NCBI GenBank assembly: GCA_964631745.1
Contig: CAZVWV010000002.1
Coordinates: 999 to 64,998 of the forward strand
Length of the DNA: 64,000 nucleotides
Origin: an uncultured Bdellovibrionales bacterium
GTDB taxonomy: Bacteria > Bdellovibrionota_C > UBA2361 > JBGSMV01
Direction: 5' to 3'
Positions within the stretch are counted from its first letter, which is position 1, and every line of letters starts with the position of its first letter. The position numbers were made by a program, and so were the translations under genes. A model generated the notes under the pieces. The model searched no databases and was not told the DNA's origin. It saw only the letters and a program-made list of their open reading frames with translations. This document shows positions 2,922 through 48,450 of the stretch, one piece after another.

Positions 2922-3026
2922 TTAGAGTATTAAATCAAAATCTTATTGTGCTCGAAAGAGCAGTAAGTCATGGCACGATGGTAGAGCTGGCTGGAAATTG
3001 CGGGTTCGCTCCCGAGCCGATCGGAT

Positions 3027-5427: not shown

Positions 5428-5466
5428 ACCTGCAAGAGCAATTTCAAAATTCTAGCTTCGCTTGAC

Positions 5467-8839: not shown

Positions 8840-8899
8840 CGAAATTAAGTGTATATTTTAAGTCGCCAAATTGGAGCTCGGTCATAAATTATATTAAAA

Positions 8900-9856: not shown

Positions 9857-9862
9857 TTCTTC

Positions 9863-10828: not shown

Positions 10829-10839
10829 ATTCCGTGCTG

Positions 10840-11511: not shown

Positions 11512-12470
11512 TTATACGAAACTAAGTCTTCCACATAACGTACCGCTTCGCCATATCTAAGCTTGGGCTGGCGCGGCAACTTCTTTTCTAGAAAAAAATC
11601 AACTAACATCGCAGACTCGTTGTAGCCAAAAGCAGTTCGCATAGATGTGGAAGAAGAGATGCGCGGGTTAATTTCAAGCAATTTTAAGGCCCCGGCGTGT
11701 TTTCTAAATTGAAAATTTGTAGGTCCCAGCGGGCGAAAATAGCGGCACAGTTCGCGCAAGACATCTTGCGCCTCATCGAGTTTCACAACTTCCGCCCTGT
11801 CCGTATATCCATCCTTTGATAACCTACGGCGCAAACTTATTTGCGCACAGTAATCGCCATTTCCATCACCAAAGACTGAAACAGTATACTCTTCCTCGTC
11901 ACTTCCCACAAGTGCTTGCGACATTAAAGACTTACCAATATTCTCACGATGGGCCAGAAATACAGTCCGATCTGCCACCCTCACTATTCCGCGAGCAGCA
12001 TGCCCATGACGCGGTTTCAATATGAACGGAACGCCGAACCGTTCAGCAAGAAGATCAAAATTGTCATCCAATGACGAATCTATAACAAATGCTGGATTGA
12101 GTTTTGCCAGGTGTCCATAAAAAACCCATTTGTCCTTGCAAAGGGCGATTAACTCCGGTCTGTTCAGCGCGAATATGCGGCTGTTTTTTGACATTTCATG
12201 CAAATTCTCACTCCACTTGTACATATCAATCTCAATTCCCGGGACAACTAAATCCACTGCATGCTTACGAATCGTTGCATCCAACCATCCTATATAGCCG
12301 TCGTCATTTGTATTCGGAGCAACTTCAAAAATATCACTGAAGTGTTCAGCGATAGTTCCCGTATAGATGGAAGTGCCAATCAGCGTCACGTTTTCATGGA
12401 CTTTCCGCAGGGAACGCAAAATTCCATAACCGATAATTCCACTGGCTCCCGAAACCAAAATTGTTGTCAT
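11508..12470 (-). CDS. ATP-grasp family ligase
   Basis: FILKPRHGHAARGI (the ATP-binding lysine loop) and LEINPRISSS (the E-x-N signature of ATP-grasp enzymes). N-terminal Rossmann-like GASGIIG. Confidence 0.75.
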   Translation of the reverse strand: MTTILVSGASGIIGYGILRSLRKVHENVTLIGTSIYTGTIAEHFSDIFEVAPNTNDDGYIGWLDATIRKHAVDLVVPGIEIDMYKWSENLHEMSKNSRIFALNRPELIALCKDKWVFYGHLAKLNPAFVIDSSLDDNFDLLAERFGVPFILKPRHGHAARGIVRVADRTVFLAHRENIGKSLMSQALVGSDEEEYTVSVFGDGNGDYCAQISLRRRLSKDGYTDRAEVVKLDEAQDVLRELCRYFRPLGPTNFQFRKHAGALKLLEINPRISSSTSMRTAFGYNESAMLVDFFLEKKLPRQPKLRYGEAVRYVEDLVSYK

Positions 12471-13354
12471 ATGTCTATCTTTGTCCTTCTCGAAGATGCT
12501 ATGCGATTTAACCCTTCCTGAATAGAAATCTTAGGGTAAAAACCGATTCGCTCATAAAGCGAGAAGTTCTTATGGAAGATCTTATCAGCAAGGTCGTCTC
12601 GCGTAATATCGAAGCTGACCTTCCCATGGCGCCCAAACGCCTCAAAGGCGGCATTAGCAACAGTTGAATAAGAATAATCCTGTACATACTGGCAATTGTA
12701 GATCCCTTCGAGACGCAGCTGTACAACTCGGCGCAAGACATCCGTGAGATCTTCGATGAAAATGTAATTTCGTAAAGCGTCATGGCTACCGTAAATGATG
12801 ATATCTCTGCCAGCTTGAGCTTGATCAATAATATGATACAAGAAAGGCTGATGTCGACGGAAGTTTTCAGTCTCACCGTAAATTTGAGAAGGACGCACGA
12901 TGCACAACGGGAGAGAGTTGGTTGCACAATGCATCACCGCCACATCCTCAGAATATCTTTTTGTCAAAGCATATGGTGAATACGAAGCAAAACCTTGCCC
13001 AATAGATGCAAAAATGCTCGAAACTTGAATAAAATGCTTTGCGCCCATTTTGGCGGCTTTTTCACAAAGCCTTAGTGTCCCAAGGACATTAATATTGATT
13101 GCGTCTGATAGTTGATTATACGACGCACCTCCGAAGTGCGCCGCGGTATTTATAACAACATCCAGATTCGTTGGAATTTCCATCTCCTCTGGACCTTCCG
13201 CCAAGTCAACATGAACATCACAAGAATTCCGGCCGCCGGTCACTACCTCACAGAATTCAGAAAGCGCAACTTTGAGTGCTACCCCTAATGCAGAATGACC
13301 CCCGACAATCAGAACTTTCATCGCATCCTCTGAATTTGGGCTAGTATTCCGCAC
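12467..13354 (-). CDS. NAD-dependent epimerase/dehydratase family (extended SDR) protein
   Basis: N-terminal MKVLIVGGHSALG nucleotide-binding motif and catalytic YALTK (YxxxK). Overlaps both neighbouring genes by 4 nt and 37 nt. Confidence 0.7.
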   Translation of the reverse strand: MRNTSPNSEDAMKVLIVGGHSALGVALKVALSEFCEVVTGGRNSCDVHVDLAEGPEEMEIPTNLDVVINTAAHFGGASYNQLSDAININVLGTLRLCEKAAKMGAKHFIQVSSIFASIGQGFASYSPYALTKRYSEDVAVMHCATNSLPLCIVRPSQIYGETENFRRHQPFLYHIIDQAQAGRDIIIYGSHDALRNYIFIEDLTDVLRRVVQLRLEGIYNCQYVQDYSYSTVANAAFEAFGRHGKVSFDITRDDLADKIFHKNFSLYERIGFYPKISIQEGLNRIASSRRTKIDI

Positions 13355-14058
13355 GAAAGTTCAGGATAACCAATTCCTACTTCACATAATGCGTCGATAA
13401 TCCGATGGTCTAGCTTCAAATCCAAAATTTGCTTGGTCGTAAACGGTTTGAGATAAATTCCTTCCAATTGCGCAATCTCACAACCTGCCTTATGCACGTC
13501 CTCTCTCAATGTACGAACAGTATAGTAGCGCTTGTGTCCAAGCAAAACATCATTGCCCGATAGCTCTTCGATGTTGGGCAGCAAGCCCGCAATGTGCCCC
13601 AGCCTTCGATTAAGGGCTTCGGCATTAGGCACGGCAACATATAGTGTCCCACCGGGCTCCAAAAATCTTGCATAACGCGAAATGAGAAAAGCGGGATTAT
13701 CCACATGCTCCAAAACAAAGCCCAAAACAATCAAGTCAAAAATCTCAGTGGTGTCAAAACTTTCGAAGAGTGACTCAACTACTTGCGCTGAACAATCTGG
13801 AAATCTTTGCTTAAAATGGACTGTGACGGCAGGCGAACCATCTATCACCACATGTCGTTTAAAATGCTTCGCGAATCTAGCGGTGGAATACCCATGACCC
13901 AATCCTAACTCTAATAAAGACTTCGCCTCACCTGACAAGGCAATGATTCGCTCAGGATACCAATTCAATAAAATTTCATTATCAAAATCGTACAAAATCC
14001 CACCGTTATAGGCAGTGACCGATCTATCCAATGTTTTATTCATAGGTGTGTCACTCAT
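13318..14058 (-). CDS. Class I SAM-dependent methyltransferase, paralog of the 8099..8839 product
   Basis: Motif I LELGLGHGYS, LIVLGFVLEHVDNP, and a C-terminus co-linear with the other methyltransferase. Confidence 0.7.
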   Translation of the reverse strand: MSDTPMNKTLDRSVTAYNGGILYDFDNEILLNWYPERIIALSGEAKSLLELGLGHGYSTARFAKHFKRHVVIDGSPAVTVHFKQRFPDCSAQVVESLFESFDTTEIFDLIVLGFVLEHVDNPAFLISRYARFLEPGGTLYVAVPNAEALNRRLGHIAGLLPNIEELSGNDVLLGHKRYYTVRTLREDVHKAGCEIAQLEGIYLKPFTTKQILDLKLDHRIIDALCEVGIGYPELSCGILAQIQRMR

Positions 14059-14064
14059 GTCTTA

Positions 14065-15150
14065 TTATTCGATTACTTCACCGACGATCCTAGCTATTTT
14101 GGAAACAATTTCAGACTCAAGGTCATGATACAATGGTAAGCATAGCACTCGCTTGGCTACGTCTTCCGTAATTGGAACGCTTTGCGGTTTAACATAATTA
14201 AGCCTATTCAGCGCAGGGTAAAAGTAGCGACGGGTCAATATAAGTTGATCTTTCAACGCAGCACGGACACGCAACAAAACGCTTTCTGATTCAAAAAGCA
14301 CAGGATAGTAAGAATAATTATATTGCAGACCTGGTTGGCTAGTCGGCCTGCTAAGCTTAGCCTTCCAAAATGGCGCCAGCAGCCTGTCGTATTCATCGGT
14401 TACGACTTTTCTTTTTTGAATGAGTGTTGGAACATGGGGAAGAACTGCTAGGCCCATAGCAGCGTGGAGTTCCGAATTCTTTGCATTAATTCCTAATCCA
14501 AAAAAAGCCTCGGGGCCATTGTGCCCGAAATTCATCAAGTAAAATATCTTGTGTGCGAGGTCATCGTCATTAGTTAAAATGGCCCCGCCTTCCCCAGTAT
14601 GAAATAGTTTAGTGGCATGGAAACTGACTGTCGAGATATCGCCGTTATTTAATATCGCTTTTCCATTCAAACGACACGCAAAAGCCTGGGCCCCGTCGTA
14701 TATGACCTTGAGACGATTAGCTTCTGCGATTTGCTGTATTTTTTCCACATCGCAACTATTACCGTAAACATGCACCGGCAAAATTGCCGATGTATTTCCA
14801 TTAATTTTTGCTTCTATACATGCAGGGTCGAGACAAAATGTGCGCGGGTCTATTTCAGAATAAATTGGCTCGCACCCCTCCCAACAAATCGCCGCGGTAG
14901 TGGCGACGTAACTGAAAGCGCTAGTGATAATTTCCCCACCAAGTCCTAGTGCGCGAATAGCAATTTGCAAGGCAATCGTGCCGTTGCTGACTAGATAAAC
15001 ATGCTTTACTCCGAACAGAGACTTAAGCTCGGCCTGCAAGCGCTGAGATAGAGGACCATGATTCGTAACCCAACGCTGGTCCCAAATTTGCCGCAGATAT
15101 TCCACATAGGTATTAAAATCGGGAACGAATGTTTTGGTTACGGTAATCAT
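14065..15150 (-). CDS. DegT/DnrJ/EryC1/StrS-family PLP-dependent sugar aminotransferase (ArnB/PseC-like)
   Basis: 361 aa. SFHATK carries the PLP lysine. Family-typical N-terminus (VTKTFVPDFNTYVEYLRQIWD..WVTNHGP) and C-terminal LCLPLYHDL. Confidence 0.85.
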   Translation of the reverse strand: MITVTKTFVPDFNTYVEYLRQIWDQRWVTNHGPLSQRLQAELKSLFGVKHVYLVSNGTIALQIAIRALGLGGEIITSAFSYVATTAAICWEGCEPIYSEIDPRTFCLDPACIEAKINGNTSAILPVHVYGNSCDVEKIQQIAEANRLKVIYDGAQAFACRLNGKAILNNGDISTVSFHATKLFHTGEGGAILTNDDDLAHKIFYLMNFGHNGPEAFFGLGINAKNSELHAAMGLAVLPHVPTLIQKRKVVTDEYDRLLAPFWKAKLSRPTSQPGLQYNYSYYPVLFESESVLLRVRAALKDQLILTRRYFYPALNRLNYVKPQSVPITEDVAKRVLCLPLYHDLESEIVSKIARIVGEVIE

Positions 15151-15629
15151 TGGTAACCGTCTCCAATTGTACCTGAATTGAAAAATTTACAGTTTGAAAT
15201 ATATTTGCACGATATTGTATACAATTCATCAATCCCTTTCGGATCTTTCTATCACTAAGTCACAGCTCGGTCGATAGCCCCAGGACAATCTCACTGGCAG
15301 CAACCTATCGTCCTATAATCTACTGGTATAATTGAGGAAATTGAAATGAGGCAGATAGGCAAGAGTTGCACCCCTGAATAGAGTTAGCATTATAGTCTAA
15401 CCTATCAGAAGAAAAGCCGATGGAAGCGCGTCTAGTAAATTTCGCACTACTGTCACATTTTTCAGTTATCAGGGATCCACGTCGCATATGCGGAAAGTTA
15501 CATCGGCTTGAGAAGATCTTATGCCTGTCTGTGTAGGGCATTATAAGCGGAGCTGAGAGTTGGGTTGAAACTCTGCGCAGGCCAGTAAGTGCAGAAATAG
15601 TATCGATTGACGGAAAGACGCTGCGGCGT

Positions 15630-16301
15630 TCATTTGACAAGGCAAACGGTTTGCATCCACTTCATATAGTGAGCGCACTGGTCATAGCGTCCGCCAGCGG
15701 CCACGCTCCCACACTCCCTGTATCCCTCCATCTGCACCTCCAGAATGGTGCCGGTATAGTAATCCAATCCGCGAGCAAGGCTCAGGTCGACCTCGATGTT
15801 AGCCAGCGCATCGGGATCCAAAAGCGATACAAGCTCCACCATTTTCGTCTTTGCCTTCCAAGCAGAGCTTATTGTTCACTTACAAGCTAGACAGAACGTA
15901 CCGCCTTCAGCCGCAGGAATTTTTACCTCCGCAAAGTCGGTGATTCTTTTGGCTTGGCTTTGGTCGATCTTGACCTTTTCAATGAGATCTTTAAGCACTG
16001 CATCTCTGCCGGTCTTGGCAATTTTATCCAGCACCGTTATGGCAGCCTTTGACTCGTCGGCATTCAGGCCAAGCGAGGCACAGATTCCAAGCAACAGCTT
16101 ACGGTTATTAATACGCATGGCATGTTTACCGACATCAAGCACCTTGAAGACCTGATGCATGGCCGAGCGGTAGGTGCAGCACCTGTGCCGGACTTTGGTC
16201 ATACATCCTGGGCGACACCGTGCGCTTTGTGGATTCAATTCCGCCGCGCGTGATGGTAACCGGCCGCACGTCGTAATTACCTCTCGGCATTCCGTGAACA
16301 T
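15630..16301 (-). pseudogene. Decayed fragment of a histidyl-tRNA synthetase-like (HisS/HisZ class II) gene with in-frame stops
   Basis: [16 protein letters not shown]...[10 protein letters not shown] is the HisRS motif-3 region. Upstream in the same frame, INNRKLLLGI...ITVLDKIAKTGRDAVLKDL.EKVKID matches the HisRS insertion domain. Two stop codons at 15876..15878 and 15870..15872 separate the pieces. The N-terminal motif 1/2 region and the anticodon-binding domain are absent. Confidence 0.5.
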
Positions 16302-16898
16302 TTAATAGCCGAAGAGATCGAGGCCGGAATTTCCGGGGCCGCCGCCGCCATCGGGCGGGATGTAAGCGATTATCCGGTAGGCGCTCTGTACCCAACCAGC
16401 GCGTTGGAGCTAGGCGGCCATCTTTATGTGGTGGAGTTCAGCGGAACAGGCGAGATTCAAAACCAAAAGGCTCTAGATGAATTCTCAGCCGTCTTAGACC
16501 GCATACTCTGCGCGCGAAGCGCGGATTACGCCGCCCACCGAAACTAAGGTTTCGGGCTTAAGCCGCCCCAAATAAAGCCTGTGCGACCTGGGTCTTTTGC
16601 GGATTGAATGAAATCACGCGGCAAGTTCGGCGGGCAGAATAAGGTGCCACGGATTATTAATCGGGGGAGGTGTTTGATGGGCTGGTGGCGTATGAGTGAG
16701 GAGGAGGAGCACTTGAGGGTCTATCTATGATGCAAGAGTGGCTGTCTATTACTAGCCCCATTTTGGATCAAAGATCACGACTCTTAATTGAAGCTATGGG
16801 TTCAGTTTTGTCCTTAAGCGGGTGATCGGGTCTTTCGCTAGGGCCCGGGAAAATCTATCGTCTTACAGGATTCAGGAATTAGAACAGGTAGGTCACTC

Positions 16899-17603
16899 GT
16901 GAAAATAGCTATCATGCAACCGTACTGGTTTCCATACATCGGCTATTTTCAGCTCATGTCCGCAGTGGACACCTTCATAGTATACGACAATGTGCAGTAT
17001 ACAAAAAAGGGTTGGGTTAATCGCAATCGAATACTCCATCAAAGTCAACCAGTTCAAATCTCCATACCCATAAAGAAAGGGGGTCATTCGCTATTCATAA
17101 TTGACCGGATCATTGCTGACAATTGGAGTACACAACGGTGGAGAATCTTAAATCAAGTGCGCGATTTTTACCTGCAAGCTCCGATGTATCAAGATGTATT
17201 CCCACTAGTAGAGAACTGCCTATTGCACGAAGATTTAAATCTTTTTCGACATATTTCCTATTCAATTCGTAAGACCCGTGAGTACATGGGCTTGGCGTCA
17301 ACTTTTCTCGTTTCCTCCGAATTAAAAATCGATCACACCCTAAAAGGAGAAGACAAAGTTATTGCAATTTGTAGCGAAATCGGCGCAAAGCAATACATAA
17401 ACCCAATCGGTGGAACCGAACTTTACTCCAGGGAGAAATTCGCCTCATATGGCATTGATTTGCGATTCTTGAAGTCAAAGCAAATTGAATACAAACAATT
17501 CGATAAATCCTTCGTGCCTTGGCTCTCAATAATTGACGTGTTAATGTTTAATGACCTAGAAACTACTAATCAGTTTCTGAAACACGAATATATGTTGCTG
17601 TAA
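16899..17603 (+). CDS. WbqC-like family protein (function unknown, polysaccharide loci)
   Basis: MKIAIMQPYWFPYIGYFQLMSAVDTFIVYDNVQYTKKGWVNRNRI is the hallmark N-terminus of the WbqC family. GTG start. Confidence 0.75.
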   Translation: MKIAIMQPYWFPYIGYFQLMSAVDTFIVYDNVQYTKKGWVNRNRILHQSQPVQISIPIKKGGHSLFIIDRIIADNWSTQRWRILNQVRDFYLQAPMYQDVFPLVENCLLHEDLNLFRHISYSIRKTREYMGLASTFLVSSELKIDHTLKGEDKVIAICSEIGAKQYINPIGGTELYSREKFASYGIDLRFLKSKQIEYKQFDKSFVPWLSIIDVLMFNDLETTNQFLKHEYMLL

Positions 17604-17746: not shown

Positions 17747-18626
17747 ATGACAGTGAAAGCGTTTTGCGCGGAGCGCAAGCTCAATTACTATACGTTTAAG
17801 GGCTGGCAGAGAGTGTTTAGCCGAGAGGGAGTAGAGCAGTTTCGCGAGTTGGCACCCACGCCAAATGCGGAGGCTAGCTACGCTGTAGTGTTAGCCAACG
17901 GCCGGGAGCTTAAAGTAAGCGCTGGATTTTCGATTACATCTAGGGGGCCAGGGGAACGGTACCAATTCTGGTCAACCACCGATCCGGTCGGCACTTTTGT
18001 TAGAGCCCATATACGAGGCGCAGCTAGCCTCGGCGCTCAACGAGTTCTTTGAAGCAAAGCAGTATGAACCGGAACTAAGTGATAGGGCGCTGGAGTATAT
18101 CCGCCGACTTTACGATATCGAGGAAGTGGTTAAAGATGCCTCTTTGGAAGAGAGGCTAAAGGCCCGGGACCGACATTCCCGTCCGATAGTGGATGAGTTT
18201 TTTAACTGGCTGCGGGCTGAGCAGCTGACCAAGGCGCTTTTACCATCTAATGCATTTCTCAAAGCTGCCAGTCACGCGCTTCGCGCCGAAGCAGAGCTAC
18301 GCGTATTTTTGGGCGACCCGGCGGTTCCCATCGATAACAACAAGCTTGAACGTACCTTACGACCTATCCCTATGGGGCGCAAAAACTGGATGTTTTGTTG
18401 GACTGAGGTTGGCGCCAAGGTGGTGGCCATAGTGCAATCCTTAGTGGCAGCGTGCCGGTTGCATGGCGTGCGACCGTTCGATTATTTCGTAGACGTGCTG
18501 CAGCGTGTAGACTCCACCCCCATGGCTAAGGTGGCAGAGCTTACGCCACGGCTTTGGGCGGCGGAGTGGAATTCTAAAAAATTGGAAAATTCGCCTGCGC
18601 AATAACGCGCCTCAGTGACCGCTTAC
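17747..18626 (+). mobile_element. IS66-family remnant. A short tnpA-like ORF (17747..18052) is fused or adjacent to the C-terminal ~200 aa of tnpC (17997..18605), ending in the terminal repeat CGCTTAC at 18620..18626. tnpB and the N-terminal half of tnpC are deleted.
   Basis: HTH-like FCAERKLNYYTFKGWQR and ...VVLANGRELKVSAGF resemble IS66 TnpA. 18049..18622 is about 97% identical to the reverse complement of 4590..5163. Confidence 0.75.
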
Positions 18627-31329: not shown

Positions 31330-33315
31330 ATGATTTCAGAGGAAGAAAAGAGCCTTATCAGCAAGGAAGAGGAAATTCTTAAAACGACGATTGATTCTTT
31401 GGCTTCGCAACAAAAGCACGGGTTTGGGCGGCTAGGAGCGGAGAATATACGTGCTCGAACGTTGACGGCTGAGCTAGTGCTCACGAGACGGGCTGAGGAC
31501 AAGCAGCTTTTGGCGTCGGACGAAGCAGTTTCACATGCCTTAATTGGAAAGAAGAAAGAGGAGCTTAAGAACATCGACCTGCTTCTAAAAAACCCGTATT
31601 TCGCGCGTTTTGAGGTGCAAGAGATACCGTCCCGGGGCGGTAGTAGTGTTGGCGAGGCGCGAAAGATTGAGTACAAGCTCGGATTTGTGGCCAATCCGGA
31701 CTGCCGCATCATGGATTGGCGCAAGGCGCCTATCTCAAAGCTTTATTACGAGTATAAGGAAGGTGACGAATATTTTGAGGAGATCCAGGGGCGAGAGCGT
31801 GAGGGCACTATAACGTTAAGGCATGCGCTGGAGATCTCGGCCGGTGCGTTGACCAAAGTTAGTGGCGCCAAGGGAACCTTCGTTAAGAAGGGCGAGGTTT
31901 GGGAGAAACGCGGCGAGGCTGGCGGCGATGAACATCAGAGCGGCACTCTGCCACATATCCTTAGCCTTATTACCCCCGAGCAGTTCAAAACCATTTCGGA
32001 AGAATCAACCATTCCGTTATTGATTCAGGGCGTAGCGGGCTCGGGCAAGACCACCGTGGCTCTGCATCGCTTGGCGTGGTTGCTGCATGAGGAAAACTCT
32101 GCCCTGCTTTCGTCTGAGTGTTTGGTGTTGGTGTTAAGTCAAACATTGAAGCGATACATCACAGGCTTGTTGCCTGCGGTTGGCGCGCCTGAAGTAAAGA
32201 TTCAAACCTTTGCCGAGTGGGCGGCGGAAACAATTTCGCATTTTATGCCTGCATTCTGCGGTGAAGATGGAAGGCTACAAGTGCTTAATATTGAGCCTCC
32301 GCTTGGCGTGCAACGCGTTAAGACCAGCATGGCGCTCCTAAGGATGCTTGAGAGCGAGCGTGACATTGCGGATCCTTACGACCTCTTAATTAGATGCTTG
32401 TCAAATTATCGCCAATTAATTGAATTGGATGAAACCAAGCTTTTAGATCGCGAGGTGATCGATGCTGCCCTAAGCCGCACCATCAGCAATCGGGAGCAGG
32501 CAACTCTCGAAGCGTGCGATCTGGCGTTTTTCATGCGTGCGCTTGAGCTAAGGGAGAAACAGATATTTCTTCCTGACAAAAAAACTGGGCATCTTGGGCA
32601 TTTAGTGGCAGACGAAGTTCAGGACATGAGCGCGCTTGAGCTTGCTTGTATTTTCGGGGGAGTCAAAAAATCCGGAAGTGTGACCTTGGTGGGTGACACC
32701 TCTCAGGCCCTCTCCGGAAAGCAGTTTGTTGGCTGGGAGAAACTGCGAAGCTATTGGGGGCTTAAGGATTCACTTTCCAGATTTATCACCTTGGATGTTA
32801 GTCACCGCTCAACGCAACAGATCATGCGCTTTGCCAACTACGTGCAAGGCAATCAGTCCAAGGCACAAGGCAGGGAGGGTCGCCCGCCGATTCTCTTCAA
32901 ATGCGCAGGTCATCAAGCAGCCTTAAGTGCCGCCATGAATTGGTTGAACGAAGCCATGAAACGGTATCCAAACGCCCTCACTTGTGTAATTTGCGGGACT
33001 TCCCAACAGGCCAAGGAGTTGCATGGGCTCTTGGAACCAACCTTCGGTGCGGCGTTGAGAATCGGCCAGACCGAGGACTTTAGCTTTGAAGAAGGCATTG
33101 TGATTGCGCCACTACAGGTGGTGCGGGGCTTAGAGTTTGTAAACGTGCTGATTTGGGAACCGGATTCAAAGTTCTTCCCGGCCGATGAGCACGGGCGGAA
33201 TTTATTTTACACCGCAGCCACCAGGGCCTCGCAGAATTTGTGTATGGTGGCGAGTAAGGCTTTGAGCGCACTAATGCCAAGAGAGGAGAGTCGCTTGATG
33301 CGGGTGGTGGCGTGA
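31330..33315 (+). CDS. helD: HelD-like (helicase IV class) UvrD-family helicase that would associate with RNA polymerase
   Basis: The N-terminal domain motif RIMDWRKAPISKLYYEYKEGDEY matches B. subtilis HelD ([23 protein letters not shown]). Walker A LLIQGVAGSGKTTVALHRLAWLL and a C-terminal UvrD-like 2A domain. Confidence 0.7.
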   Translation: MISEEEKSLISKEEEILKTTIDSLASQQKHGFGRLGAENIRARTLTAELVLTRRAEDKQLLASDEAVSHALIGKKKEELKNIDLLLKNPYFARFEVQEIPSRGGSSVGEARKIEYKLGFVANPDCRIMDWRKAPISKLYYEYKEGDEYFEEIQGREREGTITLRHALEISAGALTKVSGAKGTFVKKGEVWEKRGEAGGDEHQSGTLPHILSLITPEQFKTISEESTIPLLIQGVAGSGKTTVALHRLAWLLHEENSALLSSECLVLVLSQTLKRYITGLLPAVGAPEVKIQTFAEWAAETISHFMPAFCGEDGRLQVLNIEPPLGVQRVKTSMALLRMLESERDIADPYDLLIRCLSNYRQLIELDETKLLDREVIDAALSRTISNREQATLEACDLAFFMRALELREKQIFLPDKKTGHLGHLVADEVQDMSALELACIFGGVKKSGSVTLVGDTSQALSGKQFVGWEKLRSYWGLKDSLSRFITLDVSHRSTQQIMRFANYVQGNQSKAQGREGRPPILFKCAGHQAALSAAMNWLNEAMKRYPNALTCVICGTSQQAKELHGLLEPTFGAALRIGQTEDFSFEEGIVIAPLQVVRGLEFVNVLIWEPDSKFFPADEHGRNLFYTAATRASQNLCMVASKALSALMPREESRLMRVVA

Positions 33316-33372: not shown

Positions 33373-33789
33373 CTACAGGCCACAATACTTACCAATTTGC
33401 AGCGCGAAATCCCTAAAAACACACATTTCAGTCGTTATTTTTTCGAAAACCCTGCCCCATTCAATAGTCGCGTATCGATGCACTAACAAATTCCTAAACC
33501 CTACCGCTTTCGAAAGTTTCTCAGCCAGCGATTTTTCTATTATTCCCTTTCCGCCAAGCTCCAAGAATAGGCTTCCTGCCGACAAACCACCGAGATCATC
33601 AAGGTCTGAGGCAAGATGCGCAGCTATGTCGATACAGTTCTGTACCGCGCGCTCTAGGTTTACCGAAATGATGTCTTGGATATCAAGATCCACGAAAAGT
33701 CGGTCAGCCGACTCTGGCATCTTACTCTCAATTCGCGCCACGCAATTTCTTAGATTTTCTAACTTTTGTGCAACTAACTTTCTATCCAT
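33373..33789 (-). CDS. hepT: HepT-type HEPN toxin (DUF86)
   Basis: 138 aa. The R-x4-H HEPN motif RNLLVHRY. Overlaps the upstream MntA gene by 8 nt (ATGAATAA). Confidence 0.8.
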   Translation of the reverse strand: MDRKLVAQKLENLRNCVARIESKMPESADRLFVDLDIQDIISVNLERAVQNCIDIAAHLASDLDDLGGLSAGSLFLELGGKGIIEKSLAEKLSKAVGFRNLLVHRYATIEWGRVFEKITTEMCVFRDFALQIGKYCGL

Positions 33790-34192
33790 GAATAAACCTT
33801 TCGCGACGCGCTTTAAGTATCGACTCCCACAACGGAATGTAGTCTAGTCCTTCCATCAAACACCGGGAGATAAGATTACCATACAACTCAGAATTTCGAT
33901 TAATAAGCGTTACCCTGCAAGAGACGATCTGCTGCAGCAAGACTCCGGATGCTGCCCGAAGATCAATGAGATCGATTTCTTTATTGGTTTTTTGAGATAA
34001 GCGCTGCGCCAAGTTAAGACGTTCATCCATGGTGAGCGGATGTTTCATTGCCACTGCTATATCGATATCACTATGCGACGTGGCGCCCCCATTTGCATAC
34101 GACCCGAAGCAGATCGCCAGTTGAAGATTGGGGATCTCCGTTAGAGTGTTTTTGATTGTTTCCAACAGACTCGACAGTATTTTCTTGGGCAT
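33782..34192 (-). CDS. mntA: MntA-type minimal nucleotidyltransferase antitoxin
   Basis: The Pol-beta NTase motif GSYANGGATSHSDIDIAV (GS...SDxD). Confidence 0.8.
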   Translation of the reverse strand: MPKKILSSLLETIKNTLTEIPNLQLAICFGSYANGGATSHSDIDIAVAMKHPLTMDERLNLAQRLSQKTNKEIDLIDLRAASGVLLQQIVSCRVTLINRNSELYGNLISRCLMEGLDYIPLWESILKARRERFIHG

Positions 34193-34335
34193 AACTTCAG
34201 CCGAACTTAAAATTGGTACGATATCAGAGCATTATATACTACTCTAAAAGAGAGAGGAAGCTTCGCGCGCGGAAGCTCATGTACAAAAATCTCTCGATTT
34301 TCGCTCAGAGACCATGCGCAATTTTTCAGCTGCTG

Positions 34336-35109
34336 TTACGCCAATATCGGGCAGGCGCCACGGATTGAGCCATAATGCGCTTTATCTTTACTGCCGGGGG
34401 TGTGGTTCACTTCGCCCTTCTTGTTGATATATAGGCAGCCCAGCTGAGTTGGTTTGAGCTGTTTTACCATGGCGTGCGCCTGGTCTAGTGCTTTGATCCA
34501 ACGCAGCTTAATCTGCTTTGGATCAACCTCCACACGCAAGGTCTCCTGAGCTAACAGGTCGGGGGTAATCCTGGCATTTCTAGCGATCATTTCTAGAATT
34601 AGTTCCGGCGTAAAGCCCGGATCCTTTCCGCAAGCTGCCCAGCAACACGCTCCAAGATGCAGGAGCGTATCGTGAATTGAAAGTATGTCGATTACGTCAC
34701 GAACCTCGGTGCGCCCCGCCAGGGCGAGGCACTTGTTAATGGCGGCATCTATCTCATGCAGCCGGTAGCCTAGGTCAGGGTCAGGTATAATGGGGAAGAA
34801 ACGAAAGGCAGAGTCGCTTGTCCATTCAAGCTTCACTCCGTCGTTAGTATCCTTAACAAAGGCTCTGACAAAGTTGGGTGTTTCAATCAGTACTTCAACT
34901 TTAAATCCATTACCTTTTAGGGTGTTTATATCGGCAATGGCGCTTAATGTTACGCTCGCAGCAGGATCATGAAAGAGATCGATATCTCTGGAAAACCGCG
35001 GCGAATCCGGAGATCTATTTATTACGGTTGCTCCGGCGACATAGCTTTCCGGATTTCGATTTACCGCAAGCAGCGAGAGAACCTTTCGTTGGAATGGTGT
35101 TAAGGGCAT
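34336..35109 (-). CDS. AbiEii/AbiGii-family nucleotidyltransferase toxin-like protein (DUF1814)
   Basis: VAGATVINRSPDSPRFSRDIDLFHD matches the family signature GGTAL...R.SEDlDF. 257 aa. Translationally coupled to the upstream small ORF by a 10-nt overlap. Confidence 0.6.
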   Translation of the reverse strand: MPLTPFQRKVLSLLAVNRNPESYVAGATVINRSPDSPRFSRDIDLFHDPAASVTLSAIADINTLKGNGFKVEVLIETPNFVRAFVKDTNDGVKLEWTSDSAFRFFPIIPDPDLGYRLHEIDAAINKCLALAGRTEVRDVIDILSIHDTLLHLGACCWAACGKDPGFTPELILEMIARNARITPDLLAQETLRVEVDPKQIKLRWIKALDQAHAMVKQLKPTQLGCLYINKKGEVNHTPGSKDKAHYGSIRGACPILA

Positions 35110-35495
35110 AGTTTCGATGCCTCCATATAACCGATGCGGCCGCCATAAGTTTTCAGGCCCTTTATAATTTGCGGTAAGTCAGTCGCGGTAATAATTAAGT
35201 CCCGTTTCATGTGCCAGAAACATTGCTCATAGTACTTTTCAAAAAGCTGTTGGGCCCGCTCCAGAACCGAATCCGTCTCTTTAGGACTGGCCTCACTAGT
35301 CGTCATAGCAGCCACGAAGCGCCGCAGCACTTCATTAATTTTGCGCTGATACCCAGGGCCTGAGCCCTTGAACCAGTCCACAATTTCGCGATCAAGCTTT
35401 ATAAATACCGGAACCTTAGGGGACTTGTCCTGTTTAAAGATGTCACCGGCAGCCTGGGCCAACTTTAGGTTGGCTTGGGAAATTGATCTTGGCAT
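35100..35495 (-). CDS. Putative antitoxin: a BrnA-like (DUF4415) segment fused to a ~55-aa C-terminal extension
   Basis: KVPVFIKLDREIVDWFKGSGPGYQRKINEVLRRFV resembles the BrnA core (I.LDedVLeWFk...GyQt.iN..LR.y). It is upstream of, and overlaps, the AbiEii-like gene. Confidence 0.45.
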   Translation of the reverse strand: MPRSISQANLKLAQAAGDIFKQDKSPKVPVFIKLDREIVDWFKGSGPGYQRKINEVLRRFVAAMTTSEASPKETDSVLERAQQLFEKYYEQCFWHMKRDLIITATDLPQIIKGLKTYGGRIGYMEASKLCP

Positions 35496-35519
35496 ATATA
35501 TGATTATATATATGATTCA
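35496..35519. promoter_or_regulatory. Perfect 2 x 12-bp direct repeat (ATATATATGATT)x2 abutting the start codon of the 35100..35495 gene. Candidate autoregulatory operator or UP element.
   Basis: Seen directly in the sequence at 35496..35507 and 35508..35519. Confidence 0.35.
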
Positions 35520-35628
35520 TATTTTGGGTCAAGCACGATTATGGGAGGCTACCTAGCCTGATATATCGGCATCGTTGTATGGCGAAACGCCGTTATTTGA
35601 CTAAGAATCATGTTGGTTTAGACCGGGA

Positions 35629-36846
35629 ATGAAAGGTGGTATGGCCCCGTTAGGGTGCCCTAAATCGATTATGATTTTAGACGAAGATCTATTAAAGCGC
35701 AGACGGGCACAGGGAAAAGCTCCTGACGGTGAGGATTTTGAACCGGAGCACATTGGCGCGATTCCTGAGGAGTCGGATGACCCATTCCGATCTTTTGACG
35801 CTTTCGGTCGAGCTGCAAAGCGTCTGTTCGAGGAGCTTGCAGGCAAAGCCCGTGACCCCAATTTAAATCCGAAATTTACTAAGTTTAATTCGGGCGAAAC
35901 TGAGCGAGCAGAAAGTACTTCGGATGCTGCTCGCACCGCTCCCGACGATAGAGTTGCGGAGGAGTATTTCTTTCTTGTCGGGATGGCCACGGGCGAAAGC
36001 GAGAAGCGTCCTCCTTATATTTTGCCGCCACTTAGGGGACCTGAGACGGACGCTGAACCCAGCATCACTCAGAGCGAGGATGAGGAGGATTTACGAAGAG
36101 CTCGTCTCAGCACTCGCGAGCCATTGCAGACAACGATCGAAGTCTCGGAGCAGCGTTTACCGCGACCTGATGAGGGCGCGGAAATTTTACAAGCAGATCG
36201 GTTTGGACAGATTACAGAGCATGCTGTTGATGACTCCCAGTTCCTACGGGCCTCCCTGTCCGCATCAGACGAACCTCGAATACCAGTAGGAAGGATCGTG
36301 CCGCTCTTTTTAGAAGCCGAAGGATCGATCTTAAAGCCCAATGTCGAGCGCGGCCGCGCCCGCATATTAAGTCAGGCTTCGTTGCCCGTAGATGACCATG
36401 TCTTGGGCGCACTGGAACAGGCCCAGAGCTTATTGGCACAACTGCCGCCGATTCCAAACCTCGCAGATATTCCAGCTAACCCCGCGGGGATAGCGCAGAC
36501 GACAGGGCACCCACCGGGCAATCTCCAATCAGGTAATGACTGGAGTGAAGATTTTGGGAGCGTTGATTTTAACTCCCCATCACAACCCGCCCAGGAATTA
36601 GAGGCAGCGCGCGCCGCCATGAAATTAGTAGCTGCCTCATCCTTGGCCACGGCCCATGCCGCACGGGGTCCACTCGAAGATCATTCTAGGCGACTCGCCA
36701 TAGTCGGAGCCGCTTTGGCCGCCGACCCGGAAGAGCTTGACTCTGCGCCCTTTTTAGACGGCGTGAGACGGGCACAGGCTGCTGTGGCGGAAAGGGTCAG
36801 ACTGCTGAATCTGAACGAGCACGAGCTTGCTCTCAGAGCGGCTTAG
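35629..36846 (+). CDS. Hypothetical acidic, Ala/Glu/Asp/Pro-rich low-complexity protein (405 aa) in a locally GC-rich patch
   Basis: A long ORF with no recognisable domain. The region has higher GC than its surroundings, which explains the several antisense ORFs in the track. Confidence 0.4.
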   Translation: MKGGMAPLGCPKSIMILDEDLLKRRRAQGKAPDGEDFEPEHIGAIPEESDDPFRSFDAFGRAAKRLFEELAGKARDPNLNPKFTKFNSGETERAESTSDAARTAPDDRVAEEYFFLVGMATGESEKRPPYILPPLRGPETDAEPSITQSEDEEDLRRARLSTREPLQTTIEVSEQRLPRPDEGAEILQADRFGQITEHAVDDSQFLRASLSASDEPRIPVGRIVPLFLEAEGSILKPNVERGRARILSQASLPVDDHVLGALEQAQSLLAQLPPIPNLADIPANPAGIAQTTGHPPGNLQSGNDWSEDFGSVDFNSPSQPAQELEAARAAMKLVAASSLATAHAARGPLEDHSRRLAIVGAALAADPEELDSAPFLDGVRRAQAAVAERVRLLNLNEHELALRAA

Positions 36847-37227
36847 ATTGCAGGTGTGATTCAGAGAGGGCTGCTCCTGGTCTCAAGAGATACAACTCTT
36901 AGCGGCATACCCCGCTTGGAAGATAGGAACGTGAATCCTTCTGAACGTCACCGATCTCTCGAAACTCCCTCGTCGACCGCAACCAACCTGCCATCATTAA
37001 CCTTATAAAGCCGCATGGACTGATTCACGCTTCTGGCCGGTCCGAAATATACACGCATGCGGTCTGCGATGGATCCGGTTTTGTTGGATTCAACGGCGGC
37101 TGCCACATACATTAAGCCCTGATAGCCCAGTGCAACTATGCTTGCGTCCCAAGCCTCCTCTCCATATAGCTCTCGGTATCTTGTGAGAATCGGTGACTCG
37201 GCTGGCGGTAGCCAAGGTACGTAAACT

Positions 37228-37509
37228 CTAAGCCGCCTTGGATGTAACCACTCGATAGTCGTACCCTAAAGACACTAGAATATTGAAGATCACATCGAAA
37301 GTGATATTAGCAGTTCCAATTCCTGACTCAATCTGAGCAATTCTTGCCTGACTTACCCCAAGTTTTCTTGCGACCATGACTTGCGAAATCTTCTTGGCTT
37401 TTCGAATCTTTTTAATCATGCCGATTAGACGCTGTTTCTCCCTAATCTCGGATATATCGGCACCAAGCGACTTTGCTAATTGTTCCACTGTAACTTCTTT
37501 CCAAGGCAT
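37228..37509 (-). CDS. HTH-XRE family antitoxin (HigA-like)
   Basis: 93 aa. KISQVMVARKLGVSQARIAQIESG HTH. Immediately downstream (2-nt gap) of the Gp49-like toxin gene. Confidence 0.7.
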   Translation of the reverse strand: MPWKEVTVEQLAKSLGADISEIREKQRLIGMIKKIRKAKKISQVMVARKLGVSQARIAQIESGIGTANITFDVIFNILVSLGYDYRVVTSKAA

Positions 37510-37510
37510 A

Positions 37511-37843
37511 CTATATCTCTCGAATTCGTTTTAAAATTAATTTCATTTCTTTCTGTGGGATCTCCTGCGTCTTTTTCCGAAAAGCATGGATCAAATAAAT
37601 TGCCTCTGCACGCTTGATAAAATAAATAACTCGAACTTGCCCACCCTTGTCCCCGAATCGTAGCTCATGCAGTCCACGCGCTATATTTGAAAGGTTACGA
37701 CTCAATGGCATACTAAGATTTTGCCCAGATTCAAGAAGAGCGACAGCGTCTGCGACTTCAAGTTGTGTGGCCGCTGGCAACTCCAATAGAAATTCTTCAA
37801 CTGGACTTCGTCCACTTGATTTCTTGAAATATCGAACCTTCAC
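37511..37843 (-). CDS. RelE/ParE-superfamily toxin, Gp49/HigB-like (DUF891)
   Basis: 110 aa. GLHELRFGDKGGQVRVIYFIKRAEAIYLIHAFRKKTQEIPQKE matches the Gp49-like family core (l.ELR......yRvlYf......iyLLhaF.KKtqk.P..e). Confidence 0.7.
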   Translation of the reverse strand: MKVRYFKKSSGRSPVEEFLLELPAATQLEVADAVALLESGQNLSMPLSRNLSNIARGLHELRFGDKGGQVRVIYFIKRAEAIYLIHAFRKKTQEIPQKEMKLILKRIREI

Positions 37844-37852
37844 TTTAAAAAT

Positions 37853-37885
37853 ATAAGCTTCAACTTATAATAAGTCAAGGCTTAT
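37853..37885. promoter_or_regulatory. Two tandem inverted-repeat operators ATAAG-N6-CTTAT in the promoter of the HigB-like/HTH operon
   Basis: ATAAGcttcaaCTTAT at 37853..37868 and ATAAGtcaaggCTTAT at 37870..37885, 10-40 bp upstream of the toxin start. Confidence 0.45.
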
Positions 37886-44487: not shown

Positions 44488-47400
44488 ATGCTGAAACGAT
44501 TCGCAAAGACACTCCCATTCTTGATTCTAATCACTGGCTCAGTGGTTTCTCTCGAGATCTATCGCCAACAGCTTCAAGATGTGGTTGATGATGTCAGTTA
44601 CAATTTAGAATTGGAGTCGCTCCAGACCGTAAAGGCCTTAGACGAGAAGCTTGGGGTGTACGAGGCGGCGCTGAGAGGCAGCGCGGGGTTCTATACGGCC
44701 TCCGGCGACGTAAGCTTAGCAAGTTGGCAAAGTTATGTGGGCTCCCTAGATATCTTTACACAGTATCCGGGTGTAATGGGGATGGGGATAGTAAAGCCAG
44801 TCAACGTACAGGACTTGGAGGCTTTCGTCGCAGCTCAGAGTCTCGCTAGCTCTCAAAGCTTCGCGATCAGAGACTTTCCGGCCCAAATACTGGGTGCACA
44901 TGCCGCTCCTGCTGAAGATTCCAAACTAAAATATATCGTAACTTATCTCTGGCCCGAGGATTTGAGTGCAAAGGTTGCCGGGCTTGATATAGGCAGCGAA
45001 CAACAGCGACGACTGGCTGCTGAATCGGCACGAGATACAGGTAAGGCTGTGATGACGCCCAAAATCCAGATCTGGCAGGGCGACAACTCGGCCGCTGGTT
45101 CGCTCTTACTGCTCCCTATTTACAAAACGCGACAGATGTTAGACAGCACCGAAGCTCGGCGGGCGGCCTTCGAAGCTTGGGCGTTGATGCCACTGACATA
45201 CAATGAATTCTTCAGGGATTTGCCGAGACTTCGAAAGTTTCACGCTCTTGATATTTTTCAAAACATCACGCCCGCTTCGGACTCATTGGTGTTCGCCGCT
45301 GAGCCAGTGAGGGCACCGGGAACGCAGGCCTATTCCAAAATCACACGAATCAATTTAGCGGGTGTTCCTTTTACCTTGGCCTGGCAAGATACTCTCCCAA
45401 AAGGCTCGGCCATGTCGCATGAGGCGCTTATACTGGCGCTTTCTTTGGCCACAACTTTCCTTTTCACTGGTCTAACCTATCTCTTATCAGCGCTTGAACG
45501 CCGTGCTCAAAAAATCGCCAGTGATCAGCTAACTTCCACCAGAGCAAAAGATTCCGAACTGAAAGCCGTTAATGACTCGGCCCCAGTTGGAATATTCAGA
45601 ACGGATACTAAGGGCGAGCTACTCTATGTTAATCGACGCTTCGAAGAGATCGCTCAAACGGAAGTAAACGCTTGTGTGGGGTTTGAATGGCTTGGACTTA
45701 TTAACGCAGAAGCACGAGAGCGCATACAATCAGAATGGCGCGCAAGTCTTCGGGCCAAGATCGCCTTTAGCACAGAGCTTCACTTTCGGGACAGAGACGG
45801 TCACTTACGACATGCAAGCCTAAAGGCGCAACCTGTTTACAACGGAACAGAGTATCTGGGCTATGCGGGGACTTTGGAAGACACGACTGAAAAAGTCTGG
45901 GGCGAAAAGCAAGCAGCGGTCCAGGTCGCCATCACCGATGCGCTGAGTCAGGCTTTCAGCCTTGATGAAGTCAGCTCGTTTATTTTGAAAGAACTGTGCG
46001 AGAAATTCGATTGGGATGCGGGAGCGATCTGGCTGGTGGATAAAAAATCGACCAAGCTTAGATGCATCGAGGTTTGGCACAATCCCGATAGAGCGCTCGG
46101 GGCCTTTGCTCAAAATTCTTTAAACCTACAAGTTAGTGAGGGCGAGGGACTACCCGGACAGGTATGGCAACGTGGCACAGTACTATGGCACTCCGATCTT
46201 AGCACTCAAACTAATCTCGCCAGGGTGGATGCCATTCGAGATAATAATCTTCGCACGCTCTTGGCGATGCCGATACTCTCAGGCGGGCACACACGCGGCG
46301 TGCTTGAGTTTTTCAAAGCTCAGTCGCTAAAACCAAATCGAGACCTAATTAGCTTTTTAAATACTCTAACAACGCAGATTAGTCAGCTGCTGGAGCGCAA
46401 GGAAGCAGAGGAACGCGTACGCGTTAGCGAAGAACGCTTGCAGGGCTTATTAGATAATTGTTCACAGTTCATTTTTATTAAAGACCTAAACGGGCGATAT
46501 CTAATCGCCAACAAGGCCTTTGAAAAAACATTACAGGTCGCTGCAGGGAGCCTCATTGGAAAGTCAGACTACGAAGTATTTCCAAAAGAGATTGTCGAAG
46601 CATTTCGAGCGAATGACGCCAAGGTGTTGGCCAAGAACCAAAGTCTAGAATTCGAGGAAGAGCTTCTTGTTGATGGCCAAGAAAAGACCTATCTCACCAC
46701 CAAGTTTCCTTTGCGCGATAGTGATACAGCACCCTATGCAATTTGCGGCATTGCTACCGACATAACGGATAGGAAGTCCGCCGAAGATGCCCTGCGGGTT
46801 GTACTTCAATCAGTAACGGCCAAGGCCGATGAAACCCTATTTTGCACTTTAGCCGAGCAGGTGGCTCGTTCCTTACAAGTCGAATACGTGAGCATCTCAA
46901 AGATACTCCCCGACAAACCGGGTTGGATTCAGAGCCTGACTTTTTATGCTAACGGGGCACTGCTGAGCAGCAGCGAACATCCCCTTGCCGGCACTCCCTG
47001 CGAAGACGTGATCGAGCGAGGTCCACTTCTTCACTCGCAGGATGTAGCAGACATGTATCCGGATTTTCCGTACCTTAAAGCCATGGGCGCGTATAGTTAC
47101 TTTGGGTCTGCTCTCTTAGACTCCGCCGGAAACATCATAGGGATTCTAGCGATCATACATACAGAAGCGTTGACGTTAGATAAGCACCGCGAGTCTCTAA
47201 TCCAGATCTTTGCGGCACGCGCCTCTGTTGAACTTGAGCGTCAGGGTTATCAGGAAGAGCTTATTCACGCTAAAAATATCGCCGAGAATATCGCCCGCCT
47301 CAAGTCTGAATTTCTGGCCAATATGAGTCACGAGATCCGCACTCCCATGAATGGCATAATCGGCATGACTAATCTTGCGCTTGAAACTGAGCTTGACCAG

Positions 47401-48450
47401 GAGCAAAAGGGATATTTGGAGGTCGTTAAAGATTCGGCTAATGCGCTTCTTACGATCATTAATGATATCTTAGACTTTTCCAAAATAGAAGCGGGCAAAT
47501 TCACGATCGAGGCCCATCCCTTTGAGTTGAGGAATTTTATCTCCAAAGAGCTGACCCTGCTTTCGGCAAGAGCGACGGAAAAGAAAGTTAAAGTGAGTTT
47601 CTCTATTCAAAATGAAATCCCCAAAACATTAGTGGGCGATCAAGTTAGAATTGGGCAACTGCTCATGAATCTTATCGGGAATGCGATCAAATTCACTTCC
47701 CCCTCCGGAGATGTGCATTTAAGAGTTGAAATAGACAGTTGGAATGCCTTGCGCGATCGTTGTTGGCTTCATTTTGTAGTGCGAGATACCGGCATTGGTA
47801 TCGAGACAGAGAAACTGGAACATATTTTTGAGGCCTTCTCGCAGGCCGACGCGTCGACTACCCGACAGTACGGGGGAACGGGGCTAGGGCTCTCCATTAG
47901 CAAGAAACTTGTGGAACTCATGAACGGCAGAATCTGGGCCGACAGCAAAGTCGGAGAAGGTTCGGAGTTTCACTTCTTAATTGAATTCGCCGTGGCCGCA
48001 GAGGGCGCTATAAAAAGTGCCGCGCCTGCTGCTAGGCACGTCATGGCTGCTCCACAGTACGGTCTATCGGTACTAGTGGTTGAAGATAACATAGTGAATC
48101 AGAAGCTAACCAAAAAGCTGTTGGAAAAGCGCGGCTGTTCGGTCATTATCGCGAACAATGGGAAGGAAGCGCTTGATTTAATCAAAGCTAAGCCAGATTC
48201 ATCATATGATCTGATTTTTATGGACTGCCAGATGCCGGTCATGGGCGGATTTGAAACCACCGAACATATTCGAAAATTACAGGGGCGTATTGGTGATATT
48301 CCGATCGTAGCCATGACTGCACATGCTATGACTGGAGACCGGGAGCGCTGCCTTAGCGCCGGCATGAACGATTATATTTCAAAGCCCCTGGAGGTTACCT
48401 GCCTAAACGAGATCTTGGAGCGATGGGGTACCTCGCATAAGAAGATCTAG
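44488..48450 (+). CDS. Hybrid sensor histidine kinase: TM, periplasmic CHASE, TM, PAS, GAF, PAS, GAF, HisKA, HATPase, REC
   Basis: 1320 aa. H-box [19 protein letters not shown]-boxes DTGIGI / GGTGLGLSI, and receiver D in [14 protein letters not shown]. Confidence 0.85.

Follow-up and report, generated by a model that had tools for sequence, protein, structure and literature searches.

Does the tight group of toxin-antitoxin (TA) type genes between positions 33373 and 37843 of the stretch of uncultured Bdellovibrionales DNA analysed here (contig CAZVWV010000002.1; the whole stretch, 64,000 nucleotides (nt) long, is called the window) constitute a defence or addiction island, or does it consist of separate modules that lie side by side? 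An earlier note, made from the bare letters, had recognized three modules of the TA or abortive-infection type within this region, interleaved with a GC-rich acidic open reading frame (ORF) and an ORF remnant, and had read the ensemble as such an island. ORF and family profile checks recovered six TA-type genes, arranged in three two-gene modules, at the minus-strand positions assigned to them and with the expected family signatures, so that this part of the description is confirmed. For each pair, the recognition as a TA-type module is based on families, motifs, fold, and gene order, and the spacing within the pairs, which amounts to an 8-nt overlap in module 1, a 10-nt overlap in module 2, and a 1-nt gap in module 3, fits translationally coupled TA operons. 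The analysis shows the gene content, the motifs, the fold, and the conserved pairing.

This paper describes the region as, quite probably, three independent and self-regulated two-gene TA modules that stand next to each other on the chromosome, in a gap flanked by housekeeping genes. The cluster is real but ordinary: clusters of TA modules are common, and modules 1 and 3, which are fresh members of well-known families, contribute new sequence members only. Module 2 is a conserved, widespread, and unannotated cassette in which a nucleotidyltransferase (NTase) of the DUF1814 superfamily is preceded by a small partner protein, and it is this pair that receives most attention below.

Two modules of well-known families

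Judged from sequence, the HepT/MntA pair of module 1 is a canonical type VII system. The upstream gene, mntA (33782-34192, minus strand), encodes a minimal nucleotidyltransferase antitoxin of 136 amino acids (aa) that scores 85.8 bits against the NF047752 MntA_antitoxin equivalog (cut-off 60) and 74.4 bits against PF18765, and that carries an intact GSx10DxD motif (G30-S31-x10-D42-I-D44). It overlaps by 8 nt with hepT (33373-33789, minus strand), which encodes a 138-aa HEPN ribonuclease (RNase) toxin with 104.5 bits against the NF047751 HepT_toxin equivalog (cut-off 60), 72.5 bits against PF01934, and an intact Rx4HxY motif (R99-NLLV-H104-R-Y106). With both proteins above the NCBIfam equivalog cut-offs and both catalytic motifs intact, the identification proposed in the earlier note stands. 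HepT would accordingly be a HEPN RNase that MntA silences by transfer of adenosine monophosphate onto the tyrosine of the Rx4HxY motif; the family knowledge summarized in PMC11586414 is that MntA puts a nucleoside monophosphate on HepT and thereby blocks its RNase activity.

Module 3, at the other end of the region, can be classified from its profile matches and gene order as a canonical HigBA-type Gp49/XRE pair. Its first gene (37511-37843, minus strand, GTG start) encodes a 110-aa Gp49/HigB-like toxin of the RelE/ParE superfamily, which scores 71.8 bits against PF05973 (cut-off 23.9) and 76 bits against phrog_2523, and the same 110-aa gene was called in an independent assembly. The antitoxin gene (37228-37509, minus strand) starts 1 nt past the toxin stop codon and encodes a 93-aa XRE-family helix-turn-helix (HTH) protein that matches PF01381 HTH_3 with 49.8 bits. 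These scores and the toxin-first operon bear out the Gp49/HigB-like toxin and HTH-XRE antitoxin recognized earlier. A consensus scan placed a promoter-like site, TTGACT-17-TATATT (10 of 12 positions), at 37850-37878 on the minus strand, and its -35 and -10 elements are overlapped by two TAAG-N6-CTTA palindromes (37854-37867 and 37871-37884) that lie 17 nt apart. This palindrome occurs three times in the window, against 0.97 expected occurrences, and two of the three copies are those at the module 3 promoter; the two form a credible pair of candidate HTH operators. Module 3 would thus operate as a type II pair, in which the RelE-fold toxin cleaves mRNA on the ribosome, and in which the XRE antitoxin binds the Gp49 toxin and represses the promoter through the two palindromes.

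Transcription signals and module boundaries

Between the NTase gene of module 2 and mntA a terminator-like GC hairpin was detected (34258-34278, minus strand), which consists of a 7-pair stem, GAGCTTC..GAAGCTT, followed by CCTCTCTCTT, a T-rich tract. It is a consensus pattern match only, and it points to separate transcription of modules 1 and 2. An Rfam scan of the region returned nothing.

Upstream of module 2 the consensus scan found the promoter-like site TTGACC-18-TATAAT (11 of 12 positions; 35503-35532, minus strand), the -10 element of which is enclosed by a perfect tandem of two copies of ATATATATGATT at 35494-35517, a candidate operator. In module 2 the -10 element ends 7 nt before the ATG start codon and in module 3 it ends 6 nt before the GTG, and neither start is preceded by a Shine-Dalgarno sequence; because of this close spacing and the missing Shine-Dalgarno sequences, the mRNAs of both modules may be leaderless. 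The earlier note had placed operator-like repeats at the promoter of every module, which was substantiated for the tandem of module 2 and the palindromes of module 3, but upstream of mntA only the terminator-like hairpin was found.

The AT-rich tandem repeat region upstream of module 2 (35475-35532) also holds plus-strand promoter-like sites (TTGGCA-16-TATGAT, 35489-35516), which face a divergent 405-aa ORF that is described below. The partner protein of module 2 could control both divergent genes by means of its ribbon-helix-helix (RHH) domain.

The nucleotidyltransferase of module 2

The downstream gene of module 2 (34336-35109, minus strand) encodes a 257-aa protein that is a genuine DUF1814-superfamily (AbiEii/MenT-type) NTase, identified by its motifs and fold, and a putative toxin. 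It scores 23.4 bits against PF08843, barely over the cut-off of 22.5, and the same family is matched by 30 of 35 members of its subfamily (E<=0.01). For AbiEii, motifs I-II (hG[G/S]..R..DhD), III (K..R), and IV (+DxxD) have been defined, and mutagenesis by Dy et al. has shown that all four are required for toxicity (PMC3985639). The NTase contains G26-A27...R38-F-S40-R41-D42-I-D44, K126-x6-R133, and R137-D-V-I-D141, and in 35 homologues the residues of all four motifs are either invariant or conserved to at least 90%. The AF2 model of the protein (predicted local distance difference test score, pLDDT, 91.6) was compared with PDB structures by Foldseek, and the closest folds were JHP933 (4o8s, 4ok0; E ~1e-7) and MenT4 (6y56; E 6e-6); the alignments cover nearly the full length, and the template modelling (TM) scores are 0.50-0.55. 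The modelled fold is of the Pol-beta-like type found in the DUF1814 superfamily. The subfamily comprises ~2,954 homologues at E<=1e-3, most of which are unnamed.

Within the active-site loop R38-F-S40-R41-D42-I-D44, S40 is conserved in at least 90% of the subfamily. The corresponding position is strictly Ser/Thr across DUF1814 according to Arrowsmith et al. (PMC11375011), who also reported that auto-phosphorylation of the toxin can be triggered by unrelated antitoxins and even by a single helix.

The partner protein and its linkage to the nucleotidyltransferase

The upstream gene of module 2 (35100-35495, minus strand), which shares 10 nt with the NTase gene, encodes a putative antitoxin of 131 aa with an RHH N-terminus and an unannotated helical C-terminus. 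Residues 20-61 match the RHH family BrnA_antitoxin with 43.6 bits (cut-off 26.1), so that the protein is laid out as a BrnA-like RHH domain (residues ~20-65) and a helical domain of ~58 aa (residues ~74-131), of which residues 81-130 are predicted to be helical with a pLDDT of 91-95. Alignment of 24 partner homologues showed conservation to be centred on the C-terminal domain, the signature of which is AQxLFxxYxxQCFWHMxxDLxxTxxDLPxIIKGLxTYGGRxGYxEAxxLC. The RHH domain is sometimes missing and the C-terminal domain is always kept; homologues of 83 aa consist of this domain alone. Public records name partner-type proteins hypothetical. Pfam, NCBIfam, PADLOC, and the PDB do not contain the domain, so that these cassettes escape present pipelines for TA and defence annotation. 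The earlier note had described an AbiEii-like NTase with a small upstream partner, and both genes are indeed present, but the partner is not AbiEi (COG5340) and no PADLOC model matches either protein.

Linkage of the two genes extends well beyond this locus. In the six neighbourhoods retrieved by exact-protein look-up, a partner of 83, 103, 125, or 129-130 aa precedes an NTase homologue in every case, with the 10-nt overlap in five of the six, and the surrounding genes are unrelated among the six. When metagenomes were scanned for the domain, an NTase gene was found directly downstream on the same strand in 46 of the 50 loci that had more than 130 nt of sequence downstream of the domain. The pair is thus a conserved cassette that recurs across unrelated neighbourhoods, and some of its copies elsewhere adjoin ParE modules, Fic genes, or SLFN/AlbA genes. 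The searched literature contains no description of a DUF1814/AbiEii toxin paired with a BrnA or RHH protein.

Two closely related strains of another organism (L015, positions 7253-8246, and L016, positions 2533-4653) carry the same partner-NTase cassette with differing next neighbours, which are ParE, DUF6290, and Fic genes in one strain, and ParE and an SLFN/AlbA-HATPase protein in the other. In both strains a conserved, unannotated 138-aa gene is located directly downstream on the opposite strand.

A proposed mechanism for module 2 and its alternative

For the modules of this region we infer toxicity, targets, mode of neutralization, and operator binding, and in module 2 these could fit together as follows. 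By analogy with AbiEii and MenT, the NTase would halt translation by adding nucleotides to the 3' ends of tRNA, which is how MenT toxins block translation (PMC7450476, PMC10435456). The partner would be a modular antitoxin, in which the C-terminal helical domain is the toxin-specific neutralizing part and the optional BrnA-like RHH domain binds the tandem ATATATATGATT repeats and autorepresses the operon. Neutralization of the NTase might proceed by sequestration or by induced auto-phosphorylation of S40; the latter is a reasonable mode in view of the motif match with MenT3 S78 and of the findings in PMC11375011. We put forward, as a proposal that we judge to be evenly balanced, that the ~58-aa helical domain is an undescribed and widespread antitoxin domain for a short DUF1814 NTase subfamily (~3,000 detected members), that it occurs alone or fused to a BrnA-type RHH autorepressor, and that it may act through induced auto-phosphorylation as proposed for MenA1 and MenA3.

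Several observations weigh against this account and against the description of the region as a row of self-regulated TA modules. The NTase has no matches in NCBIfam or PADLOC, and it is a peripheral DUF1814 member, with a marginal Pfam score and a TM score to known structures of only ~0.5. A subfamily profile search of PDB sequences yielded only spurious matches (E ~0.08 or weaker), and the link to solved MenT and AbiEii structures therefore appears at the fold level only. S40 was equated with the MenT3 phospho-acceptor S78 (R76-x-S78-K79) by motif only. The partner C-terminal domain is unlike any known antitoxin, and its antitoxin role is proposed from gene linkage alone. For module 1, neither a convincing operator nor a clear, strong sigma-70-like promoter was found upstream of mntA.

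Some of these points would also suit a different explanation, in which module 2 is not a TA pair: the NTase would serve a regulated housekeeping function, such as the modification of RNA or of a small molecule, and the partner would be the RHH transcription factor co-transcribed with it. The marginal match to the AbiEii family of Pfam and the blindness of PADLOC to the NTase would be expected of such a gene, as would a partner that resembles known antitoxins in its DNA-binding domain only, and many copies of the cassette lie among ordinary metabolic genes. Nevertheless, we consider this explanation unlikely. All four motifs needed for AbiEii toxicity are conserved in the NTase. The conserved part of the partner is the domain that does not bind DNA, and its retention without the RHH domain fits a protein-protein neutralizer better than a transcription factor. 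Moreover, the patchy distribution of the cassette, the shifts of its context between close strains, and the 10-nt gene overlap are typical of mobile TA modules. The reading of module 2 as a TA pair is therefore preferred, and under this reading module 2 shows that a large, mostly unannotated subfamily of DUF1814 (AbiEii/MenT-type) toxins is partnered by a small domain and not by AbiEi.

Open frames between modules 2 and 3

The space between modules 2 and 3 is occupied in large part by an orphan acidic ORF on the plus strand (35629-36846; 405 aa), which is divergent from module 2 and of which the deposited call starts at M5 and measures 401 aa. The earlier description of a GC-rich, acidic, opposite-strand ORF is accurate: its GC content is 55%, its isoelectric point is 4.8, and it contains 69 Asp and Glu residues against 45 Lys and Arg residues. 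It looks coding, with an in-frame codon log-likelihood of 0.141 and negative values in the other five frames; the training genes that served as reference score 0.18 +/- 0.05, with a minimum of 0.088. An exhaustive HMMER search of 1.84 billion representative proteins returned no homologue other than the ORF itself, no acceptable match was obtained in Pfam, NCBIfam, or PHROGs, the PADLOC match of 14.6 bits is at chance level, and antisense ORFs within it have no Pfam matches. The high GC content is explained by a composition rich in Ala, Glu, Pro, Arg, and Asp, which is expressed at codon positions 1 and 2 (GC1 0.66, GC2 0.48). At third codon positions the GC content (GC3) of 0.507 equals the host mean of 0.51, and the GC richness is therefore no sign of foreign origin. 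The best explanation for the 405-aa ORF is that of an unrelated passenger, which is not a recognizable TA or defence component and which nothing ties to the TA genes.

Between this ORF and the XRE gene lies a start-less open frame of 95 codons (36948-37232, minus strand), which the earlier note had taken for a gene remnant. A stop-free frame without ATG, GTG, or TTG does exist here, and it spans 95-105 codons within 36948-37265. As a remnant of a gene, however, it is not upheld, and it is unsupported as either a gene or a gene fragment. Searches of Pfam, PHROGs, the PDB, and a set of 5.8 billion proteins yielded no homologues; among composition-matched random sequences of 381 nt, ~25% contain an open run of this length in one of their six frames; and its codon score of 0.035 is below that of every training gene. 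Taken together, the missing homologues, the low codon score, and the chance-level length make the frame no evidence of gene decay, and it is probably just non-coding spacer. One candidate identity, the C-terminus of a periplasmic binding protein of the LivJ type, was rejected after searches of Pfam (E<=1), the PDB by phmmer (E<=10), PHROGs, and the 5.8 billion proteins had all come out empty.

It might still be argued that this spacer, and perhaps the orphan ORF too, represent decayed genes that were disrupted by insertion of TA modules. The existence of the frame agrees with this idea, as does its codon score, which is slightly positive while the remaining five frames are negative. The absence of homologues and the frequency of such runs in the simulations speak against it. 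The orphan ORF, moreover, is unbroken for 405 codons and uses codons as the host does. Together these points render this scenario very improbable.

Is the cluster a defence or addiction island?

With the modules and the frames between them described, the question of an island can be addressed. Such an island is plausible, on evidence that is weak to moderate. In its full form, the explanation would hold that a defence or addiction island was acquired here by horizontal transfer and varies among strains, that its modules act jointly against phages by abortive infection, and that the orphan ORF is cargo. We regard this as possible and rather doubtful. Three TA-type modules inside 4.5 kb are what would be expected of an island, and the copies of the module 2 cassette that elsewhere lie beside ParE, Fic, and SLFN/AlbA genes are in line with it.

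Composition is divided on this point. The GC shift claimed earlier is real in so far as 500-nt windows inside the region vary from 0.41 to 0.58, against a mean of 0.485 (standard deviation 0.034) outside it, and this heterogeneity would suit an island; equally extreme values, however, are found elsewhere in the window. GC3 deviates clearly for the Gp49 and XRE genes only (0.34 and 0.42, against 0.51 with a standard deviation of 0.06 for the host), which is in favour of acquisition, whereas modules 1 and 2 and the orphan ORF have host-like GC3. The terms "remnant" and "GC shift" are thus to be corrected, since neither provides evidence of gene decay or foreign origin.

Signs of mobility are missing as well. 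There is no tRNA gene in the window, no integrase, transposase, or recombinase among the ORFs of the region, and no flanking direct (att-like) repeat. The region shares no DNA similarity with plasmids, and no relatives of the partner protein occur on the viral contigs that were scanned. PADLOC, which the earlier note had suggested as a check on an island, gave a negative outcome: its hidden Markov models recognize no complete defence system, MntA matches no family but the candidate PDC-S09, and Gp49 has a weak match to the C-terminus of NsnC. Finally, no functional link between the modules was found, modules 2 and 3 have promoter-like sites of their own, and the hairpin separates modules 1 and 2; these features oppose a jointly acting island.

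Variable presence was approached through the gene that flanks the region on the left, a 661-aa HelD-like helicase (31330-33315, plus strand). Its orthologues, at 43-48% identity, occur only in metagenome-assembled genomes of Bdellovibrionota and "Deltaproteobacteria". In five related Bdellovibrionota loci, tblastn found no match to the proteins of the region within 10 kb of the helicase orthologue, which would agree with an island. The nearest species-level genomes are those with 43-48% helicase identity, and synteny with them is lost; since these relatives have lost all synteny on this side, housekeeping neighbours included, absence of the proteins there says little. Identical proteins of the window were found by exact-protein look-ups, which included the helicase, NTase, and XRE proteins, only in runs SRR12762304 and SRR12762305; a further look-up with the methionine aminopeptidase, for which the start was guessed, gave no match.

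Neighbouring genes and other features of the window

Leftward of the helicase lies the nuo operon, and in one relative nuoC adjoins the helicase orthologue as it does in the window, which argues for a housekeeping gene outside the region. To the right, the modules are followed by genes for a GDSL lipase, methionine aminopeptidase, phosphopantetheinyl transferase, and acyl-CoA carboxylase. The helicase scores 183 bits against NF041464 (RNA polymerase recycling motor HelD), under the cut-off of 419, and it has weak matches to the defence helicases GajB and DRT RTasHel.

Further features were noted elsewhere in the window. A low-GC stretch (0.39-0.43) at ~5400-17600 contains a polysaccharide or O-antigen-type biosynthesis cluster with genes for a family 2 glycosyltransferase, a methyltransferase, a DegT/EryC1 aminotransferase, WbqC, and an ATP-grasp protein; in composition this stretch is more deviant than the TA region. 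The 202-aa ORF at 17997-18605 aligns with the C-terminal part only of a profile for the IS66-family DDE transposase (positions 159-283 of 284), and it is probably a truncated insertion sequence element, with the polysaccharide cluster on one side and the nuo operon on the other. Positions 44488-48450 encode a hybrid sensor kinase of 1320 aa, in which CHASE, HisKA/HATPase, and receiver domains are combined with several PAS and GAF domains.

Comparison with known systems

Modules 1 and 3 closely follow their described counterparts. Shewanella SO_3166/SO_3165, the Aphanizomenon HEPN/MNT system, and the Legionella HEPN-MNT system (PMC11586414) have the same order of mntA followed by hepT, overlapping genes, and both motifs; no notable difference was seen, other than that the present pair is a Bdellovibrionota member for which no clear upstream operator was found. 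Likewise, HigBA and Gp49-HTH_3 modules share with module 3 the toxin-first order, the families, and the promoter-overlapping palindromes, and Gp49.HTH_3 is a catalogued common TA pair (PMC6504116). Again there is no notable difference, and GC3 is below that of the host here.

For module 2 one closely related arrangement is AbiE of Streptococcus agalactiae and Lactococcus (PMC3985639), a type IV TA and abortive-infection system, which shares the bicistronic organization, the antitoxin-first order, the downstream DUF1814 NTase with motifs I-IV, and a two-domain partner with one DNA-binding and one C-terminal domain. The two systems differ in the nature of that partner, which in AbiE is the COG5340 winged-HTH protein AbiEi and here is a 131-aa protein that combines a BrnA-like RHH domain with an unrelated helical C-terminal domain. 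They also differ in the operator, which consists of paired inverted repeats in AbiE and, as a candidate, of a tandem direct repeat in module 2, as well as in the NTase, which is shorter here (257 aa), matches PF08843 marginally, and has no PADLOC match.

The type II system BrnT/BrnA of Brucella resembles module 2 in the N-terminal half of the partner, which matches the RHH family of the BrnA antitoxin. BrnA is paired there with the RelE-like BrnT, whereas in module 2 the place of the cognate protein is taken by a DUF1814 NTase, and the region has no BrnT gene. A TA survey (PMC6504116) reports BrnT as nearly the sole partner of clusters of BrnA-type antitoxins, and the pairing with an NTase is therefore unusual for this domain.

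The best structural match of the NTase, JHP933, is a DUF1814 NTase from the plasticity zone of Helicobacter pylori that has a similar size and aligns over nearly its full length, with a sequence identity of only 14-17% and a TM score of ~0.5. MenAT of Mycobacterium tuberculosis (MenT1-4 with diverse MenA antitoxins; PMC7450476, PMC10435456, PMC11375011) also employs a DUF1814 NTase toxin, and MenT4 belongs to the closest folds found for the NTase of module 2. In MenT3 the phosphorylated Ser lies in the active-site loop R-x-S-[K/R]-D-x-D, and this Ser is conserved in the NTase of module 2. Moreover, the 7.4-kDa MenA1 provides a precedent for a small, unrelated antitoxin of a DUF1814 toxin (PMC11375011). 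Should the proposed role of the helical domain be correct, module 2 would add a third, structurally unrelated antitoxin solution to DUF1814 toxins, and it would represent an unusual re-use of the BrnA domain. Module 2 thereby offers a compact test case for the recent proposal that unrelated antitoxins all force DUF1814 toxins to phosphorylate themselves.

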